Positions 18,103 to 35,636 of a stretch of 35,636 nucleotides of DNA are shown here, in pieces. The notes beneath the pieces are model-generated. The model was not told the DNA's origin. It searched no databases and saw nothing but the letters and a program-made list of their open reading frames with translations. Each line of letters starts with the position of its first letter. Positions within the stretch are counted from its first letter, which is position 1. This DNA is from Dehalococcoidia bacterium (lineage in GTDB: Bacteria > Chloroflexota > Dehalococcoidia > Lucifugimonadales > Lucifugimonadaceae): NCBI GenBank assembly GCA_028278465.1, contig JANQEF010000145.1, positions 1-35,636 on the forward strand. The letters are read 5' to 3'. The translations under genes were made by a program, and so were the position numbers.

Positions 18103-19101
18103 CTACTTGTCACCCCTGGCGGTGGTCGTCTTCTTCCTCGTGGTCGTGCGCTTTGCGGCGGGTTTCTTTGCCGCTGCCTTTGGCTTTGCGGTCGCTTTGG
18201 CGGTGGACGACTCGGCCTTGCTGCTGGCCGCCTTCTTACGAGTCGAGGTGGTGGCCTTCTTGCGAGTTGTGGTCGATTTCGTGGCCGACTTCGCCGTGGC
18301 GGTCTTCGCAGTACTGCGACGCCTCGTCTCCGGCTTCCTGGCGGGGGCCTTCTTCGGCTCCTCTTCTGCTTCAGCCACATCCGGCTCTGCAACTACTGCT
18401 TCGGCAGCTTCAGCAGTTTCGGCCTTCGCCTTCGCGGTGGTTCGACGTCGCCTCGTAGCAGGCTTCTTTGCGGGAGCTTCGTCAGCCGCCTCTTCCGCTG
18501 CCGCATCCGCCACTTCTGCTACTTCCGGCTCGGCCTCGGCTGCTGCTGTCTTCGCTGCCGCCTCAGCCGCTATCTTCTTGCGCTCCGCAGCCCTCTGCCG
18601 GGCGGCTGCTCTCTTCTTCGCCGCTTCTTCTGCAGCCGCAGCAGCTGCTGCCTCCCGCTCAGGACGCTTCTCGGTCCAGATCAGCTGCGACGCGTGCGGA
18701 TGCTCTTCTCCGGCATAGACCTTGAGCCGTCGGATCATCCGCTCACCGAGCTTGTTCTTCGGGAGCATTCCGCGCACGGCATGTTCGATGATCCGCTCAG
18801 GCATGCGCGCCTGCACCTGCCTGTACGGAATCTCCTTCAGCTTGCCGGGCCGCTGGCTGTGGCGCTTGTAGACGATCTGGTCGGCCTTGTTGCCGGTCAC
18901 CTTAACGTCGGCGGCGTTGATGACAACGACGAAATCGCCCGAAATGAGATGTGGCACGTAACCCGGGCGGTGCTTGCCCATGAGAAGGGTCGCCGCTTCG
19001 CTGGCCAGTCTGCCGAGGACCTTGCCCCTGGCGTCGATCACGTGCCAGTCTGCCTCCAGCTCGTTAGCGCTGGGATTGTACGGCTTTATCTTTGTAACCA
19101 T
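18103..19101 (-). CDS. rplM: 50S ribosomal protein L13 with ~187-aa low-complexity C-terminal extension
   Basis: 332 aa. Residues 1 to about 145 are canonical uL13 (WHVIDARGKVLGRLAS, GDFVVVINA, KVYAGEEHPH). The same frame then continues without a stop through an A/E/K/T/R-rich tail to 18103. rpsI starts 14 nt downstream. Confidence 0.9.
   Translation of the reverse strand: MVTKIKPYNPSANELEADWHVIDARGKVLGRLASEAATLLMGKHRPGYVPHLISGDFVVVINAADVKVTGNKADQIVYKRHSQRPGKLKEIPYRQVQARMPERIIEHAVRGMLPKNKLGERMIRRLKVYAGEEHPHASQLIWTEKRPEREAAAAAAAEEAAKKRAAARQRAAERKKIAAEAAAKTAAAEAEPEVAEVADAAAEEAADEAPAKKPATRRRRTTAKAKAETAEAAEAVVAEPDVAEAEEEPKKAPARKPETRRRSTAKTATAKSATKSTTTRKKATTSTRKKAASSKAESSTAKATAKPKAAAKKPAAKRTTTRKKTTTARGDK
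18106..18666 (-). other. Low-complexity Ala/Glu then Lys/Arg/Thr-rich tail region of rplM
   Basis: Contains the basic modules KKPATRRRRTTAKAK, RKPETRRRSTAKTA and KKPAAKRTTTRKK, separated by AE-rich acidic spacers. All three plus-strand frames are also open here, a composition artefact. Confidence 0.8.
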
Positions 19102-19961: not shown

Positions 19962-20312
19962 TCACACCAGTTCGATCAGGGCCATCTCGGACGCGTCGCC
20001 CTTGCGCGGGCCGAGCTTGGTCATCCGCGTGTAGCCGCCCGGCCGGTCCCTGTAACGGTCGGCCAACTCGTCGAAGACGTCACGAACAACCGCATCCTCG
20101 GTGATGTACGCGGCGGCCTGGCGACGGGCATGAAGCGTGCCGTTTTTGCCAAGCGTGATCATCTTCTCGGCGATCGGCCGAGCCGAGCGCGCCTTGGCGG
20201 CGGTCGTCTTCACATGCCCGTGCTTCAGCAGGTCGGTGACCAGCGTGCGGAACATCATCTTCCGGTGACCGACCGACCGGTCAAGCTTTCGTCCCGAGAC
20301 CCGATGTCTCAT
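19962..20312 (-). CDS. rplQ: 50S ribosomal protein L17
   Basis: 116 aa. MRHRVSGRKLDRSVGHRKMMFRTL. ATGA overlap with the rpoA stop. Confidence 0.95.
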   Translation of the reverse strand: MRHRVSGRKLDRSVGHRKMMFRTLVTDLLKHGHVKTTAAKARSARPIAEKMITLGKNGTLHARRQAAAYITEDAVVRDVFDELADRYRDRPGGYTRMTKLGPRKGDASEMALIELV

Positions 20313-21367
20313 TTCTCTTCGTCTCCCGCGTCCTCGCCAGCGGCGGCAGCGACCTCTTCACCGGCCTCGCCTTCTTCGACCTCGCTGGTGACGCCCTCGG
20401 GCAGAAGGTCCTTCTCAGACAGCTTGTCGTACAGCTCGTCCAACGACTTCTGTCCGAAGTTGCGGATCTTCAGCAGCTCGGACTTTGGCATCGAAAGCAC
20501 TTCGCCGACCCGGTTGATGCCGGCGCGCTTGAGACAGTTGAGCGTGCGGGCCGAGAGGTCGAGCGTCTCGACCAGCGTGTTGTAGATCTCGGGAGAAATC
20601 CCGAGTCCCGCGGCGGGCCCGGCCTCTTCCACGGGCTCCTTGTCGAGCGTCGAGAAGAGGTAGAAGCGCTCCATCAGGCGGTTGGAGGCTGTCTGGATCG
20701 CCTCAAGCGGGGTGATCGTGCGGTCTGTCCAGACCTCCATGATCAGCCGCTCGAAGTCGTCTCTCTGGCCAACGCGAGTCCCTTCGACACGGAAGTTGGA
20801 CTTCCGCACTGGAGTGAATACGGCGTCGACCGGCAGGATCCCGATGGGAAGCCCTTCGTCGTGGGCGGCAGGCCTGTAGCCGGTGCCCTGCTCGACATTG
20901 AACTCCACCGAGAGCCTGGCGCTCTGCGAGTCGAGCGTGGCGAGGTGGTGTTCGGGGTTAACGATCTCGAAGTCGGCGGTCGCCATGATGTCGCCGGCGC
21001 GGACCTCGCCCTCGCCGTCGATCTCAAGCCGCAGCCGTCCCGGCCTGTCAGCCAGCGAACGCAACCGCACGCCCTTCACATTGAGCAGGAACTCACTCAC
21101 CTCTTCCCGCATGTTGTCGACAGTCGAGTACTCGTGGAGCACGCCGTCGACCTTGACCCAGGTTATGGCGGTTCCCGGCAGCGAGCTGAGCAGCGACCGC
21201 CTGAGCGGGTTGCCCAGCGTTACACCCCAGCCGCGCTCGAGCGGCTCGGCGACAAAGCGGCCGAACTCCTCGTCAGCTTCGAGAATCTTGACGCCCAGGG
21301 AAGGCACCTCTACCTCGGGAGGCGGCAACTCTTCTCGGGGAGTGATGCCATACATGCGCTCTAGCAC
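20309..21367 (-). CDS. rpoA: DNA-directed RNA polymerase subunit alpha
   Basis: 352 aa. EPLERGWGVTLGNPLRR. C-terminal domain LDLSARTLNCLKRAGINRVGEVL. Short acidic C-terminal tail. Confidence 0.95.
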   Translation of the reverse strand: MLERMYGITPREELPPPEVEVPSLGVKILEADEEFGRFVAEPLERGWGVTLGNPLRRSLLSSLPGTAITWVKVDGVLHEYSTVDNMREEVSEFLLNVKGVRLRSLADRPGRLRLEIDGEGEVRAGDIMATADFEIVNPEHHLATLDSQSARLSVEFNVEQGTGYRPAAHDEGLPIGILPVDAVFTPVRKSNFRVEGTRVGQRDDFERLIMEVWTDRTITPLEAIQTASNRLMERFYLFSTLDKEPVEEAGPAAGLGISPEIYNTLVETLDLSARTLNCLKRAGINRVGEVLSMPKSELLKIRNFGQKSLDELYDKLSEKDLLPEGVTSEVEEGEAGEEVAAAAGEDAGDEEK

Positions 21368-28428: not shown

Positions 28429-29340
28429 CTAAGCTCCGACCAGGCGAGGGTCATCGAGTCGTACAAACGGAACTCCGAGGAGTTCGAGCAGCCTGCGGCC
28501 TTCTTCGTCGGTGCGTGCAGACGTAACCAGGATGATCTGGAGGCCGCGCAGCCTGTCGATCTGATTGTAGTCAATCTCAGGGAAGACAGCCTGGTCTGAG
28601 AGGCCGAGTGTGTAGTTGCCGCGGCCGTCGAACGAGTGGCGAGGCACGCCCCGGAAGTCTCGGACTCTTGGCAGCGCGATATTCACGAGCCTGTCGAAGA
28701 AGTCCCACATGCGGTTGCCACGGAGGGTGACGGAAGCGCCGATGGTCTGGCCTTCGCGCAGCTTGAACGCAGCGATCGACTTCCGCGCCTTGTTCTCCCG
28801 GGCCTTCTGACCGGTGATGATCGAGAGGTCGCCAAGTGCAGCGCTGAGAGCGTTCGACGAGGTCAGAGCCTCACCGAGTCCGATGTTCACGACCACCTTG
28901 GTCAGTTCGGGAGCACGCATCCGGTTGTCGTAGCCGAACTCCCGCATGAGGACGGGGTGGACCTCGGTCCTGTAGCTGTCGAGCAGGCGAGGAACAGCGC
29001 CAGCGCCGTTCTGCGAGGCGCCGTTGGTCGAAACCTTCGGCACGGCTTTCTCAGCCGCCGCAGCGGGTTTCCTGGCTGCCGATCTCCTCGATGAGGACCG
29101 CTTCGCAGCAGGTTTCTTTTCTGCTTCCGGCTCCTCGGCTTCTGTCGCCTCAGCTTCGGCTGCCTTAGCCGGTTCTTTCTTGGCGCGCGAGGTCTTAGCC
29201 CGTGTACGTCGAGCGGGCTTTTTGGCCGCGGGCTTCGCGTCGTCAGCGGATTCGGGCTTTTCAGAAGCCTCTTCAGCTTCCGAAGCCGCCGTCGCTTCCT
29301 CGGCCTCGTTTTTCACTTCTTCGTCAGGAGCGTTTGCCAC
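28429..29340 (-). CDS. rplE: 50S ribosomal protein L5 with low-complexity N-terminal extension (start uncertain)
   Basis: Canonical uL5 ([37 protein letters not shown]) begins near residue 137 of the 323-aa track ORF (28429-29400). Candidate in-frame starts are GTG 29340 (GGGTGG upstream, overlaps the rplX end), GTG 29316 (7 nt after the rplX stop) and GTG 29043 (which would leave a ~280-nt gap). The first is listed. Confidence 0.8.
28993..29340 (-). other. Low-complexity acidic/basic extension region of rplE
   Basis: [93 protein letters not shown]. It has the same KKPA-x-RR-(S/T) module type as the rplM tail. Confidence 0.65.
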
Positions 29341-29635
29341 GCTTAACCACCCGGACCTTGCGTCCGTCCTCCAGGAACTTGAACTCCGCCCGCCCGGCAA
29401 CCTGTGTGTCGCTGTCGACCAGCATCAGCTTGCTGAGCGAGATAGGTGACTCACCGTGGACGATCCCCGTTTGAGTCACTCCCTGTTGCTGCTTGATATG
29501 TCGCGTCGCCACGTTCACGCCCTCAACGACCGCCGTGCCCTTCTTAGGCTCGACCCGTATCACCTCTCCGCGTACTCCGCGGTCTTTGCCGGATATCACC
29601 AGCACCGTGTCGCCCTTTTTGATCCGTTGCGCCAT
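29324..29635 (-). CDS. rplX: 50S ribosomal protein L24
   Basis: 103 aa. [21 protein letters not shown] (KOW motif). Confidence 0.95.
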
Positions 29636-30027: not shown

Positions 30028-30357
30028 CTATTCCTCTTCACTCTCGGTGCTGTCGCCAAGCGTTTCGCCGGGCATGCGGTCGATCTCGGCCGGCTGCACC
30101 TCGGCAACGTCGATCTTCTCGACGATCTCGACGAGCCGCCACCTCTTGGTGCGCGAGATCGGCCTCGACTCCTCCAGTAACACGCGGTCGCCCACCGACG
30201 CCGAGTTGGACGGGTCATGCGCAACCAGCCGCGTCAGGCGACGGCGGTTCTTCTTGTAGATCCTGTGCCTCTGCAGCCACGAGACCCCGACGACGATCGT
30301 CTGGTCGTTCTTGTCACTCAGGACGGTCCCAAGCTGCCTTCTGCGGTTGCCTGCCAA
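30028..30357 (-). CDS. rpsQ: 30S ribosomal protein S17 (acidic C-terminal tail)
   Basis: The track ORF 30028-30420 is trimmed to the TTG at 30355-30357, 22 nt after the rpmC stop. It reads (M)[24 protein letters not shown]....HRIYKK....[30 protein letters not shown]. Confidence 0.85.
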
Positions 30358-30379
30358 GCTATTACCTGCTCTTCCTGCT

Positions 30380-30592
30380 CTACTCGTCGTCGTCCATCTC
30401 GGCGACGATCTCGCGTTCACGCAGCACCGTGTTGATGCGTGCGATGGTCTTCCGCGTCTTGCGGATCTCGGTGAAATCTGAGAGCTGCATGGTCGCTCCC
30501 CGGAAGCGCAGGTTCATCAACGAGCGCTCCTGGTTTTCGAGCTCCTTCTCCAGCTCATCGTTCTTCAGTTCTCTTACTTCGCTAATTCGCAT
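30380..30592 (-). CDS. rpmC: 50S ribosomal protein L29
   Basis: 70 aa. [38 protein letters not shown]. Confidence 0.9.
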
Positions 30593-30598
30593 CTTCGA

Positions 30599-31015
30599 TC
30601 ACAGTGTGTCGCTGCGGCTGACAATCGTTGTGGGCACCGAAAGCTTGCGTGCCGCACGGCGCAACGCCTCTCGCGCCACTTCTTCCGGCACATCGGACAT
30701 CTCGTACATCATCCGGCCTCGTCTGACGACGGCGACCCAGTGGTCAACCGCGCCCTTGCCGCCGCCCATCCTGGTCTCGGCCGGACGTGCCGAAACGGGC
30801 TTGTCCGGGAAGATCCTGATCCAGATCTTGCCGCCACGCCTCACGTAACCGGAAGCCGCTCGCCGGGCTGCCTCGATCTGCCTGGCGCTCACCCAACCGG
30901 GACCGACGGCCTTGAGTCCGTAGTCGCCGAACGCCAGCGTCGAACCGGTCGTGCGCGCGCCCTTCATCCGGCCGCGGTGCTGCTTTCTGAACTTTGTCCT
31001 GCGCGGCTGTAACAT
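30599..31015 (-). CDS. rplP: 50S ribosomal protein L16
   Basis: 138 aa. [37 protein letters not shown]. Confidence 0.95.
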
Positions 31016-31881
31016 CAGTTGCTCTCCGCCGGCGCATCGGCGCCGTTTGAGGGCGTTTCGGTCGCCGCTGCTGGCTGTGGCTCGGGAGATTCGGTAGTCC
31101 GTGCACGACCGCTTCGAGAGCCGCCGCGGCCGCCTCTGCGTCTCTGTCCCCCGCCACCAGAGTCTCCGCCTCCGCTGCCGCGCTGCTGCTCGGGTGCGGT
31201 GCCGAGTGAGAGCCTCGCCATCGACCTGGCGCGCAGGTTCTCGGCGGACGGCACAACGTCGCCCCTATAGATCCACACCTTGATGCCGATGGTGCCGTAC
31301 GTCGTACGTGCTTCGGACACTGCGTAGTCTATTTCGGCGCGCAGCGTGTGGAGCGGCACCTGGCCGTCCATCTGCTTATCAGTTCTTGCGATGTCCGCGC
31401 CGCCGAGACGGCCCGAGACGACGACCTTGATGCCCTTGGCTCCGGACTGCATGGTGCGCTGCATCGCCAGCCGCACGGCCCGTCGATAGGCGACACGCCG
31501 TTCGATCTGCTCCGCGATGCTTCGTCCGACCAGCGCGGAGTCGAGTTCCGGCTGGCGCACCTCCTGGATGTTCAGGCGAGCCCGCTTCTCGGTCATCTTT
31601 TCCAGCTCGGCGCGCAACTCGTCAACGCGCTGTCCGCCCCGACCGATGATGATTCCAGGGCGAGCCGTGTTGATCGTCACGACAAGGTCCTGCGGGCCGC
31701 GCTCGATCTCGATCTTGGAGATGGCGCCGCTATCGCCGAACTGCCCGAGGATCAGCTCGCGTATGGAGTGGTCTTCCGCAGTCAGCCTACGGTACTCACC
31801 GCCGCGGTGCGCAAACCAGTGAGCCTGCCAGTCCATCACGCCGCCGAGGCGAAACCCTATTGGGTGCGTCTTCTGTCCCAT
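31015..31881 (-). CDS. rpsC: 30S ribosomal protein S3 (Arg/Gly-rich C-terminal tail)
   Basis: The track ORF is trimmed to [13 protein letters not shown] (ATG 31879-31881, TAATG overlap with the rplV stop). KH-domain [10 protein letters not shown]. The tail reads ..[30 protein letters not shown]... Confidence 0.95.
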
Positions 31882-32219
31882 TAGTCGTTCCTCGCCTCTG
31901 CGACTTCGATCGTGAGATGGCACATCGGGTGGTTCCGGGCGCCGGCCCGGCCACGAGACTTCGGTATGTACCGCTTCAGCACCGGTCCCTGGTCCGCCGT
32001 GATGCGAACGATCTTCAGATCGTCCCTGTTGAGATAGTCGTTGTTCTCGGCGTTGGCCGCGGCTGACCGGACCGTCTTCAAGACGACTGCAGCCGCAGGG
32101 CTGGTCATGTACATCAAACGGCTCTCGGCTTCGGCCACGGAAACACCGCGCACCTGGTCGATCACCAGCCTCATCTTGTACGGCGAAATGCCTATGTTCT
32201 TTGATCTTGCGACTGTCAT
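31881..32219 (-). CDS. rplV: 50S ribosomal protein L22
   Basis: The track ORF 31881-32360 is trimmed to Met48 (ATG ending at 32219), 7 nt after the rpsS stop. MTVARSKNIGISPYKMRLVIDQVRG. Confidence 0.9.
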   Translation of the reverse strand: MTVARSKNIGISPYKMRLVIDQVRGVSVAEAESRLMYMTSPAAAVVLKTVRSAAANAENNDYLNRDDLKIVRITADQGPVLKRYIPKSRGRAGARNHPMCHLTIEVAEARND

Positions 32220-33358: not shown

Positions 33359-33649
33359 CTAAACGGCAGCGCCCTCAAATAGCTGAATCGAATCGCCGCT
33401 CTTAAGCGTCACGATCGCCTTCTTCGTGTCCGGCAACTGCGACCTGTTGCGGCCGTAGGTCTTCACCTTGCCATGCGTGCGAAGCGTGTTGACCGAAGTC
33501 ACCTCGACGTTGAACGCCGCCTCGATCGCGTGCTTTATGTCCCACTTCGTGGCCTTGAGGTCCACCTTGAAGACGTACTTGCCCTGCTCCTGCAGCGCGG
33601 TCGACTTCTCTGTAACGACAGGGCTTTTCAGCACCTGGGACATCTTCAT
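33359..33649 (-). CDS. rplW: 50S ribosomal protein L23
   Basis: The track ORF is trimmed to MKMSQVLKSPVVTEKS (ATG 33647-33649, ATGA overlap with the rplD stop). An alternative ATG is at 33643. Confidence 0.9.
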   Translation of the reverse strand: MKMSQVLKSPVVTEKSTALQEQGKYVFKVDLKATKWDIKHAIEAAFNVEVTSVNTLRTHGKVKTYGRNRSQLPDTKKAIVTLKSGDSIQLFEGAAV

Positions 33650-34281
33650 GACGACGCTCCATTGCCCCACAGCTCGTTTACCGACTTCACCGCGTCCTGC
33701 GTGATGACAAGGTTCGGATACGAGGTCGCCTGCAGCGCGCTCAGGTTGCGGGCTTCAAGCGTGGAGACTCCGCTGGTGTTGGCGCAGGAAGTCATCACGT
33801 TCTCATTCACATCTGTGGTCACGATCAGAGTGCGGCCGTTCAGCTCCAGCGCCGAGACCATGTCGATGATCGAGCGCGTCTTCGGCTCGTCGAATTCCAG
33901 TGAGTCGAGCACCACGACCGACTCGCTGCGAACATGGTTGGCGAGGGCGATCCTGAGCGCCTGCCTGCGCATCTTCTTTGGCAGCCGCTGCCTGTAGCTC
34001 CGCGGATGCGGGCCGTGCGCGACTCCGCCGTGCCGCAGGTTCGGCGACTTTCTGCTGCCGAGGCGCGCCCGGCCGCCGCCCTTCTGAGCACGCAGCTTCC
34101 GGGTCGAGTAGCTGACCTCGGCGCGGGTCAGCGTGTCCTGCGTCCCTTGCCTTCGGTTGGCCTGTTGAGCCACGACGGCCTGATGAAGGAGCGCGTCGTT
34201 AGGCGCGGCGCCCCATACGGCGTCGTCAGCCTCGACGTTTCCGACAACCTTGCCGGTTATGTCCTTGACCTCGAGATCCAT
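33646..34281 (-). CDS. rplD: 50S ribosomal protein L4
   Basis: 211 aa. QKGGGRARLGSRKSPNLRHGGVAHGPHPRSY. Confidence 0.95.
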   Translation of the reverse strand: MDLEVKDITGKVVGNVEADDAVWGAAPNDALLHQAVVAQQANRRQGTQDTLTRAEVSYSTRKLRAQKGGGRARLGSRKSPNLRHGGVAHGPHPRSYRQRLPKKMRRQALRIALANHVRSESVVVLDSLEFDEPKTRSIIDMVSALELNGRTLIVTTDVNENVMTSCANTSGVSTLEARNLSALQATSYPNLVITQDAVKSVNELWGNGASS

Positions 34282-34285
34282 CTGG

Positions 34286-35524
34286 CTACGCCTGCTTCTC
34301 GATTCTCACTATGCTGTTCCTGTGCCCGGGCACGGAACCGCCTATCAATACAAGGTTCTGCCGAGCATCGGCGAGCACGACCTGGAGGCCGCGCTGCGTG
34401 ATGCTGGCGGCGCCGTAGTGGCCGGCCATCTTGGTTCCGGGCCAGACACGGCCGGGCGAGCTGCCCGCGCCGATCGATCCCGGCGCGCGGTGCCTGTCGG
34501 ACTGGCCGTGCGTCTTGGGGCCGCCTGCAAAGCCGTACCGCCGAACACCGCCGGCGAAACCACGGCCTTTCGATATTCCAGAGACCTTGACCTTGTCGCC
34601 GGTGTCGAAGAGGTTCGCGAGTATGGTCTGGCCAACCTCAAATTCGCCGAGGTCCTTGACGCTGAACTCCTGCAGGTGGCGGAACCTCCCGCCGGAACGC
34701 TCAAGGTGGCCCGCCATCGGCTTGTTCAAATTCTTGGCGGCGAGGAAGCCGACCTGAACAGCTTCGTATCCGTGCCGCGCCTCGGTCTTCACCTGGGTCA
34801 CAACACACGGGCCGACCTCGATGGCGGTCACCGGTACGGCTCGGCCATCATCTGTGTAGTAGGTCGTCATTCCGATCTTGCGTCCGAGGAGTCCGGCGAT
34901 CTCCGGCGCCTCTGCCAGCTCTTCTTCCGGCTCTGGCTCGGTGGCTTCCTCTTCGGACTGTTCTTCTTCGTCCTGCTCTGACGTTGCTGCCGGCGTTGCA
35001 GGCTCCGAGGATGATTCGGCCTCTTCGGTTTCCTGTTCGGCCTCAGCTACTGCGGGTTCAGGTTCGCCAGTTTCGTCTGCGGACTCACCTTCAGATTCTT
35101 CGCTCGCTGCAGGAGCGTCGGCCTCCGACTCCTCTGCAGCGGGTTCGGCTTCTTCATCGCCGGTGTCAGCGGCCGGCTCTTCAGCTGCGGGAGCGTCTTC
35201 GGTCTCGCCGGCGGGAGCTTCGGTTGCGTCTGACTCGGACTCGTCCTCAGAAGCGCCTTCATCAGACGACTCTTCGGCCGCGCTGGCCGCCGGCTCGCCA
35301 GCAGATTCAGCCTCTGCGGAGTCTGCGTCATCAGACTCTGTGGCGGGTTCTTCAGCTACAGGAGAGTCTTCGGTCTCTGCCGCGGCGGCATCAGACTCCT
35401 CGGTTGCGGGCTCTTCTGTCGCAGCTTCCGATGACGACTCAACCTCTGCCTCAGCGGTGGTCTCCTCGTTCTTTTCTCCGGCGTCTTCCTGCTCGGAGTT
35501 GTCGCGTCGCTCTTGCTCGTCCAT
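34286..35524 (-). CDS. rplC: 50S ribosomal protein L3 with ~208-aa polyacidic N-terminal extension
   Basis: 412 aa. Canonical uL3 (GLLGRKIGMT...PVTAIEVGPCVVTQVKT...GISKGRGFAGGVRRYGFAGGPKTHGQSDRHRAPGSIG) starts near residue 211. The ATG at 35522-35524 lies 4 nt after the rpsJ stop. No in-frame ATG/GTG/TTG occurs between Met1 and the Met inside KIGMT. Confidence 0.85.
   Translation of the reverse strand: MDEQERRDNSEQEDAGEKNEETTAEAEVESSSEAATEEPATEESDAAAAETEDSPVAEEPATESDDADSAEAESAGEPAASAAEESSDEGASEDESESDATEAPAGETEDAPAAEEPAADTGDEEAEPAAEESEADAPAASEESEGESADETGEPEPAVAEAEQETEEAESSSEPATPAATSEQDEEEQSEEEATEPEPEEELAEAPEIAGLLGRKIGMTTYYTDDGRAVPVTAIEVGPCVVTQVKTEARHGYEAVQVGFLAAKNLNKPMAGHLERSGGRFRHLQEFSVKDLGEFEVGQTILANLFDTGDKVKVSGISKGRGFAGGVRRYGFAGGPKTHGQSDRHRAPGSIGAGSSPGRVWPGTKMAGHYGAASITQRGLQVVLADARQNLVLIGGSVPGHRNSIVRIEKQA
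34901..35524 (-). other. Polyacidic low-complexity N-terminal region of rplC
   Basis: The composition is almost only E/D/A/S/T/P/G. My hand count gives about 85 Asp+Glu against 3 Arg+Lys in about 208 residues. Degenerate (A/T)EEPA(T/A)E..D units recur. Confidence 0.8.
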
Positions 35525-35528
35525 CTCT

Positions 35529-35636
35529 CTACAGCTTTATCGCGATGTCAACGCCCGCGGGCACGTTGAGCCGGGTCAGCGAGTCGATCGTCTTCGAGCT
35601 TGGCTCCAGGATGTCGATCAGGCGCTTGTGCACGCG
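35529..35636 (-). CDS. rpsJ: 30S ribosomal protein S10, C-terminal fragment (continues beyond window end)
   Basis: The reverse complement reads [35 protein letters not shown] followed by a stop. This matches the conserved S10 C-terminus (HKRLIDI..P....V..L..L.LP.GVD..I). Confidence 0.9.

Follow-up and report, generated by a model that had tools for sequence, protein, structure and literature searches.

Acidic, flexible elements tethered to the large ribosomal subunit are known from bL12 and from the archaeal and eukaryotic P1/P2 stalk proteins, which have a conserved distal end. In addition, RimK adds a poly-glutamate tail of a few residues to bS6 post-translationally, and acidic chaperones of basic proteins include Rrb1 for eukaryotic uL3 and prothymosin-alpha for histone H1. 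Low-complexity regions (LCRs) are frequent in bacterial ribosomal proteins (r-proteins), and L3 was listed among the r-proteins with at least 20 LCR-bearing orthologues, mostly A/E-rich (Ntountoumi et al. 2019, NAR, PMC6821194). According to that survey, the LCRs of r-proteins are terminal, in the vast majority of cases C-terminal, and lie at the ribosome surface; their function was left unknown (PMC6821194). The protein described here is a uL3 encoded by rplC in a stretch of 35,636 nucleotides from a Dehalococcoidia bacterium of the Chloroflexota (contig JANQEF010000145.1; the whole stretch is called the window below), and it carries an N-terminal extension of 208 residues. Very probably, this extension is genuine and translated, a disordered acidic tail that is conserved in its clade and whose composition is under selection. 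The gene and its parts are as follows.

34286-35524, minus strand: rplC, encoding a 412-residue uL3, stop codon included (list of open reading frames [ORFs], PF00297, and TIGR03625)
34286-34894, minus strand: canonical uL3 core, residues 211 to 412 and the stop codon (TIGR03625 covers residues 211 to 408)
34895-34936, minus strand: conserved junction motif, residues 197 to 210 (PEPEEELAEAPEIA), directly before the core (alignment of relatives)
34937-35467, minus strand: hypervariable polyanionic spacer, residues 20 to 196, free of K, R, and H (source of the differences in length between relatives)
35468-35524, minus strand: conserved distal N-terminal motif, codons 1 to 19 (MDEQERRDNSEQEDAGEKN; conserved in the homologues P0001 to P0025)

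The NCBIfam model TIGR03625 (L3_bact) matched residues 211 to 408 over model positions 1 to 201 of 202 (E value, 3e-74; score, 249.1 bits; cutoff, 142.9), and PF00297 (Ribosomal_L3) matched the rplC product with an E value of 3.5e-15 (score, 56.3 bits; cutoff, 22). The motif GLLGRKIGMT begins at G211, the core includes the rRNA-penetrating loop (approximately residues 320 to 373), and its identity to the uL3 chains of solved bacterial ribosomes is 45 to 60%. Those chains are mostly 204 to 223 residues long, and the window uL3 is about double that length; it departs from the usual form of the family, a protein of approximately 205 to 225 residues with its N terminus at GLxGxKxGMT, in having 412 residues and this motif only from residue 211. 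An initial reading made from the sequence alone (the sequence-only reading) had put the protein at about twice the usual length and its conserved N terminus near residue 211, and both statements hold; the strand of rplC, which is minus, was absent from it. The length anomaly leaves the membership of the core in the uL3 family unaffected.

The interval from 34901 to 35524 encodes residues 1 to 208, with the composition E68, A47, S24, D17, P16, T14, G7, Q5, V3, R2, N2, K1, L1, and M1. A recount reproduced exactly the 85 acidic and 3 basic residues that had been counted by hand; the basic residues (R6, R7, and K18) all lie within the first 18 positions, and the net charge is about -82. There are no aromatic residues and only three V, one L, and one M. 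A and E together make up 115 of the 208 residues (55%), the rest being chiefly S, D, P, T, and G. Residues 19 to 208 contain no K, R, or H, against approximately 9 expected from the position-specific base composition (probability of zero, approximately 1e-4), and approximately 8% of all one-step nonsynonymous mutations would yield K or R. All length variation among relatives is carried by the spacer (approximately residues 20 to 196), which is unalignable between them; in the junction, P207 is invariant and A206 nearly invariant. The degenerate repeat units described in the sequence-only reading are present as weak in-register repeats of 64 to 93% identity, all at spacings that are multiples of 3, but Tandem Repeats Finder (TRF) reported no tandem array in the extension. 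With TRF empty and only these degenerate repeats found, tandem repeats or a recent duplication were rejected as the origin of the extra length.

Structure prediction agrees with the disordered polyanionic arm that had been proposed. AlphaFold2, run with a 45-sequence alignment, gave residues 1 to 205 a predicted local distance difference test (pLDDT) score of 40 to 56 and no DSSP secondary structure, and it gave the core a pLDDT of 87 to 95 except in the long internal rRNA-penetrating loop. With low pLDDT, no DSSP elements, and a depletion of order-promoting residues in residues 1 to 208, the uL3 tail is predicted to be intrinsically disordered.

Evidence for translation came from the position of the gene and from relatives, which were drawn from a protein database and from one-genome-per-species contigs. 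The closest relatives are uncultured Dehalococcoidia/Chloroflexota metagenome-assembled genomes, including complete chromosomes of 3.3 to 3.5 Mb. Upstream of rplC lies the following feature.

35529-35636, minus strand: 3' end of rpsJ (uS10), which runs off the window (translation; same junction in L001 to L006 and L106 to L111; S10 Pfam matches directly upstream in relatives)

The position is that of the S10 operon: the rpsJ stop codon (TAG, 35529 to 35531) is followed by a 4-nt spacer (AGAG, 35525 to 35528) and the rplC ATG (...AAGCTGTAG AGAG ATG), as had been stated, uL4 (33646 to 34281) lies 4 nt downstream, and the gene order rpsJ-rplC-rplD is the same in relatives. The start codon and the rpsJ junction (GCTGTAG, 4 nt, and ATG) are kept in L001 to L006 and L106 to L111. 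At the start, GAGAG abuts the ATG, and there is no canonical Shine-Dalgarno sequence at optimal spacing. Sense frame 0 is the sole frame that is free of stop codons in all 13 homologous genes, and when seven genes were aligned as DNA with MAFFT, blind to codons, all gap lengths were divisible by 3 (3, 6, 9, 12, 15, 18, 21, 36, 42, 45, 57, 96, 129, 132, 135, 141, 384, and 441). The absence of any in-frame ATG, GTG, or TTG before M219 of rplC, the Met in KIGMT, was confirmed. When the same bases were shuffled as mononucleotides, only 0.4% of the shuffles gave a stop-free frame of 208 codons. Because frame, start, and gap pattern are conserved in relatives, a misassigned start, a spacer that is never translated, and an artifact of assembly are effectively excluded. 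The open frame, the in-frame gaps, and the conserved start and ends make it highly probable, on comparative evidence, that the extension is translated, as the sequence-only reading had proposed.

Spurious long ORFs overlap the extension in other frames (35047 to 35331, minus strand, +1 frame, 94 residues; and 34250 to 34981, plus strand). The 94-residue ORF was rejected as a real gene, as its frame has stops in 11 of the 13 genes. Its GC content at third codon positions (GC3), 0.83, is genome-like only because the E, D, and A codons of frame 0 begin with G. A GC3-based gene filter dropped rplC in favor of this ORF, and GC3-based gene calling can reject or truncate an rplC with such a tail. Trypsin-based proteomics is blind to the tail, since residues 19 to 214 contain no K or R; a tryptic digest would keep residues 19 to 215 together in a single peptide of approximately 197 residues.

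The 25 closest proteins have N-terminal extensions of 45 to 139 residues; nearly all of them start with MDEQE(R/K)xDNSEQEDAGEK, and most end near EEELAxAPxI(S/A), directly before GL(L/I)GRK. In the core-sequence cluster to which the window belongs, 27 of the 28 members carry an acidic N-terminal extension (median, 89 residues; maximum, 208, in the window), and its cores average 86% identity to that of the window. Relatives' extensions contain 15 to 58 D/E against 1 to 7 K/R/H. Among 266 homologues, the 208 residues of the window are the longest purely acidic extension, the next longest having 136 to 137 residues. Position and charge are shared within the clade, but length is not, ranging from 45 to 208 residues. 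The novelty claimed in the sequence-only reading was overstated, given these versions in the closest homologues and the A/E-rich LCRs already known in bacterial L3 (PMC6821194).

Acidic N-terminal extensions of 25 to 71 residues (MTTQEQ...VPEAPQSMP) that end in the same AP junction are found in a further cluster (n = 40; 69% core identity), and an equivalent junction motif, (V/I)P(D/E)AP..M(S/P), occurs in the wider clade. From the shorter acidic extension with the same junction in the 69%-identity cluster, it seems that a short ancestral extension was inflated in the window's lineage. Relatives at approximately 70 to 75% core identity (L007, L008, L010, L012, and L013) have no extension, and their uL3 starts with MGIE/MTIA-GLLGRK approximately 20 to 25 nt after rpsJ; the tail is accordingly a gain of one lineage and not a fused gene. 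A metagenome scan with uS5 for uL13-to-uL3 loci returned only relatives without the acidic uL3 tail, which served as negative controls.

In a sister cluster of 23 uL3 proteins (67% core identity; e.g., P0066 to P0095 and L112:10001-10930; one member annotated as “Chloroflexi bacterium”), the N terminus is normal, and an acidic tail of 46 to 131 residues, with 27 to 57 D/E against 1 to 5 K/R, sits at the C terminus. These C-terminal tails have a conserved junction, EAxPVLFGVLP (E-A/V-x-P-V/P-L-F-G/T-V/I-L-P), and their distal end, either EEDKEDEEKETTS or DGEKASS, is also conserved. They resemble the window tail in being polyanions of the same composition in which a variable spacer separates two conserved parts, the junction and the distal end, but they sit at the opposite terminus and have other anchor motifs. 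More distant uL3 clusters also show acidic N- or C-terminal tails.

Like the A/E-rich LCRs of the 2019 survey, the window tail is a terminal, Ala/Glu-rich low-complexity segment on a bacterial r-protein. The survey (PMC6821194) gives no account of this clade, of a position at the N terminus, of an anchor-spacer-anchor layout, or of a total lack of basic residues; moreover, the 55% A+E of the window tail is below the survey's 70% class threshold, and its 208 residues are extreme. The window tail is an extreme case of a known, uncharacterized kind. New, as far as found, are the anchor-spacer-anchor layout without basic residues and the mirrored N- and C-terminal acidic tails across the Chloroflexota. 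Literature searches for an acidic uL3 extension in Chloroflexota found none beyond the 2019 survey.

In solved bacterial ribosomes, no uL3 with a long N-terminal extension was found; such extensions occurred only in organellar uL3. Long added termini are present in organellar uL3c/uL3m and in Mycoplasma pneumoniae uL3 (5mlc_E, 305 residues; 6z1p_Ad, 439 residues; and 7ood_b, 287 residues with the core at 2 to 207), none of which came out as a pure polyanion in a comparison that covered length only. The organellar N-terminal extensions include transit peptides or structured contacts, and the M. pneumoniae extension is C-terminal; both ends of uL3 therefore tolerate additions in solved ribosomes (chloroplast/mitochondrial N-terminal extensions and the C-terminal extension of 7ood_b). 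Bacterial uL3 N-terminal low-complexity extensions of 140 to 300 residues were found by an exhaustive profile search in P0249 (512 residues), P0255 (459 residues), and P0268 (432 residues), but these are K/S/E/P-rich, balanced or net positive (e.g., 52 D/E against 72 K/R), and belong to an unrelated uncultured lineage with the core GLFAFKMSMT. Mixed-charge K/S/E/P-rich N-terminal extensions of 118 to 301 residues were seen in that lineage (P0249, P0255, P0268, P0194, P0235, and P0219). The bL12 and P1/P2 proteins are not homologous to the window element: each is a protein of its own, with folded domains, that sits at the factor-binding stalk and has a demonstrated part in GTPase recruitment, whereas the window element is a tail fused to uL3, probably on the solvent side. 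The distal 19 residues of the tail are conserved on a variable linker, but their excess synonymous conservation points to a cause at the RNA level. The RimK-made tail of bS6, Rrb1, and prothymosin-alpha offer a functional analogy only: none is homologous, and the chaperones are separate proteins.

We place at roughly one in two the probability that the extension is a translated disordered polyanionic tail that works as a brush or charge buffer; the specific brush/charge-buffer mechanism, taken by itself, is tentative. The spacer would have grown by in-frame expansion between the conserved distal motif and the conserved junction, under selection on charge and disorder and not on sequence. Both uL3 termini probably belong to the globular domain on the 50S solvent side, and the tail, with its net charge of about -82, would for this reason project into solvent; the uL3 fold and the solved uL3s with terminal additions suggest such a location at the ribosome surface. 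Exposed in this way, the tail would be repelled by rRNA and could form a surface-tethered electrostatic or entropic brush that would also be a cis-acting acidic buffer or chaperone. It might transiently shield uL3's own basic rRNA-binding loops before assembly, as well as Lys-rich tails (histone-H1-like in relatives) on neighbors such as uL13 and uL5, and this shielding would limit nonspecific sticking to nucleic acids or other ribosomes.

Selection on charge itself is suggested by a tail that is clade-conserved, purged of basic residues, and mirrored C-terminally in the sister clade. The mirror-image C-terminal tail in particular argues for selection on a uL3-attached polyanion rather than for neutral drift, and it suggests that a polyanion anchored to the uL3 globular domain is what matters. 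An extra 200 residues with this charge on every 50S subunit would be costly and are unlikely to be inert. A more far-reaching version, in which the uL3 tail would be a selected functional second “acidic arm” on the 50S solvent face that evolved at least twice in the Chloroflexota, N- and C-terminally, and would recruit a partner by way of its conserved distal motif or act as a built-in acidic chaperone for the Lys-rich, histone-H1-like tails of these ribosomes, is rather doubtful; if true, the arm would change how the ribosomes of slow-growing uncultured Dehalococcoidia are assembled, spaced, or put into hibernation. The tail offers a testable entry point to the role of lineage-specific disordered tails on bacterial ribosomes, a question raised by the 2019 survey to which no answer was found in the literature.

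Several results weigh against the brush/charge-buffer reading, and the first group of these concerns two other tails in the window.

18106-18666, minus strand: C-terminal low-complexity tail of uL13, approximately 187 residues, net charge +21 (sequence and charge count)
28996-29340, minus strand: N-terminal low-complexity extension of uL5, approximately 115 residues, with mixed acidic and basic blocks (conserved GTG start, “VANAPD”)

uL3 contacts uL13 on the 50S subunit and is an early assembly hub (PMC4881015), and electrostatic pairing of the acidic tail with the uL13 and uL5 tails had been suggested in the sequence-only reading. In nine contig-matched genome pairs, no covariation of the uL3 and uL13 tails was found: the uL3 extension ranged from 4 to 208 residues while the uL13 tail stayed at 139 to 187 residues. 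Where the uL3 tail had 96 to 208 residues (eight genomes), the net charge of the uL13 tail was +9 to +26 with no trend; L007/P0376, without a uL3 tail, has a 148-residue uL13 tail with a net charge of -6. Relatives without the uL3 extension (L047, L030, L035, and L007) keep long uL13 or uL5 tails, which shows that these tails do not require an acidic uL3 tail and that Lys-rich tails are older and more widespread than it is. Other relatives in which uL3 has no tail carry long, histone-H1-like (PAAKK)n repeats as uL13 and uL5 tails. The charge of the uL3 tail (-82) is also far greater in magnitude than that of the uL13 tail (+21). Pairing of the uL3 and uL13 tails is not supported in this small sample.

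The second group concerns codons and RNA. GC3 is 0.56 for residues 1 to 208, compared with 0.79 for the core and 0.78 to 0.84 for neighboring genes, and it is lower in the extension (0.41 to 0.56) than in the core (0.58 to 0.79) in 7 of 7 genomes (the window and L001 to L006). Relaxed codon selection, rapid turnover, and avoidance of mRNA structure or slippage are possible causes. Low GC3 together with hypervariable length would also fit weak sequence constraint. GAA, GCA, GCT, and TCT are overused in the extension relative to the rest of the operon. In codons 1 to 19, synonymous identity at conserved residues is 0.80, compared with 0.44 in the core; for the first 19 codons of neighboring genes, it is 59% (uL4), 40% (uL23), and 53% (uL2). 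This stretch also contains a candidate RNA structure.

35476-35498, minus strand: candidate 7-bp mRNA hairpin, CUCCG.GC / GC.CGGAG, codons 9 to 17 (pair count in 13 sequences; weak to moderate support)

In the 13 sequences, 83.5% of the cells of the candidate hairpin were paired, compared with 34 to 53% when the partners were slid, and two pairs had changed on both sides (compensatory). The rare Gly codon GGA in the candidate hairpin is kept in 10 of the 13 sequences. RNAalifold predicted no pairs on the 13 sequences, structure across positions -50 to +85 of the rplC start was unexceptional (z-score, -0.67), and Rfam gave no match at gathering thresholds, either within the extension or where rpsJ and rplC meet, with only chance-level matches at E values of ≤1. 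A constraint at the level of RNA or initiation may account in part for the conserved distal motif, and codons 1 to 19 may be an initiation/coupling element or a regulatory site. Lastly, we infer the function of the tail in its entirety, which is a further point on the same side.

The rival that survives best is neutral low-complexity expansion, by slippage or unequal recombination in GAR/GCN-rich DNA, of a segment that is translated and tolerated but functionless. The spread of 45 to 208 residues within a cluster of 86% core identity and the unalignable middle fit such a process, as do the degenerate in-register repeats, the many other tails in the lineage (uL13, uL5, uS3, and uL30), and the low GC3 of the extension in all seven genomes, which is consistent with relaxed codon selection. 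Neutral expansion does not readily account for a stretch from residue 19 to residue 208 without K, R, or H when E-to-K is a single transition and approximately 9 basic residues are expected. Nor does it readily account for the acidic composition kept in all relatives, the conservation of both ends of the extension, the independent gain of an acidic tail at the opposite uL3 terminus in the sister clade, or the expense of adding approximately 200 residues to a protein that is among the most abundant in the cell. On balance, this explanation is somewhat unlikely.

By analogy with P-stalk/bL12 tails and SSB C-terminal tips, which recruit factors, the extension could instead work as a flexible tether whose conserved distal peptide (MDEQERxDNSEQEDAGEK) is bound by a partner, with the acidic spacer setting only the reach. 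Conservation of the distal 19 residues and not of the spacer would be expected of a tether; a similar start, M-(D/N/E)-E-x-(D/E)-K-Q, occurs in a cluster of only 54% core identity, and the C-terminal tails of the sister cluster also end in a conserved distal motif. The excess synonymous conservation of the first codons and the possible hairpin, however, mean that a constraint on RNA or initiation may explain the motif; moreover, there is no identifiable partner, and the distal motifs at the two termini bear no clear resemblance to each other. We consider a tether improbable.

A cleavable N-terminal extension is present on bL27 of Firmicutes, and the uL3 extension could likewise be an acidic propeptide that is translated and then removed, or needed only during 50S assembly, leaving mature ribosomes without the tail. 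The place of uL3 as an early assembly hub (PMC4881015) would suit such a role, and processing could take place at the conserved junction just ahead of the core. With C-terminal tails in the sister clade that would need a separate processing system, and with 208 residues as a costly propeptide, this explanation is very improbable.

Least credible of all is an artifact (a miscalled start with an untranslated spacer, or an assembly indel) or halophile-type “salt-in” acidification: the GAGAG without a canonical Shine-Dalgarno sequence, the atypical codon usage of the extension, and the moderately acidic cytosolic proteins of the window (pI 4.4 to 6.4) would fit one or the other, but 13 independent assemblies, complete chromosomes among them, share the frame and the start, all indels are multiples of 3, no tandem repeat able to collapse or expand in assembly is present, and the other r-proteins of the window, uL29 excepted, are strongly basic (pI 9.5 to 12), on which ground salt-in acidification was rejected. 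The nonribosomal proteins of the window with pI 4.4 to 6.4 contain 10 to 18% D/E; one exception has a pI of 9.1 and 7% D/E.

The window is otherwise a normal S10-spc-alpha r-protein cluster in which several proteins have low-complexity tails. The uL13 gene (18103 to 19101, minus strand) encodes 332 residues, and its tail consists of alternating A/E and A/K/R/T blocks with 27 D/E and 48 K/R. Nearly all retrieved Chloroflexota uL13 homologues are 205 to 327 residues long, and several relatives' uL13 tails match the histone-H1-like family PF07382. The uL5 gene (28429 to 29340, minus strand) has a GTG start that overlaps the rplX 3' end by 17 nt and is conserved in L028, L033, L047, L030, L035, and L113; the ORF list over-extends uL5 to a TTG at 29400. 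The uL5 extensions of relatives are purely Lys-rich.

Shorter tails were found on other products of the cluster. uS3 (31015 to 31881, minus strand) has a C-terminal tail of approximately 60 residues (approximately 31018 to 31200), Gly/Arg-rich and then acidic; its true start is likely the ATG at 31881 and not the GTG at 31923, and the uS3 proteins of relatives have 295 to 337 residues with similar tails. Tails on uL30 also occur in the lineage, and the L112 locus encodes a 125-residue uL30 with a Lys-rich tail and a 337-residue uS3. Short acidic C termini recur in the window operon: uS17 (30028 to 30420, minus strand) ends in STESEEE, uL29 (30380 to 30592, minus strand) ends in EMDDDE, and rpoA (20309 to 21367, minus strand) encodes an acidic C-terminal tail of approximately 25 residues (EVEEGEAGEEVAAAAGEDAGDEEK).

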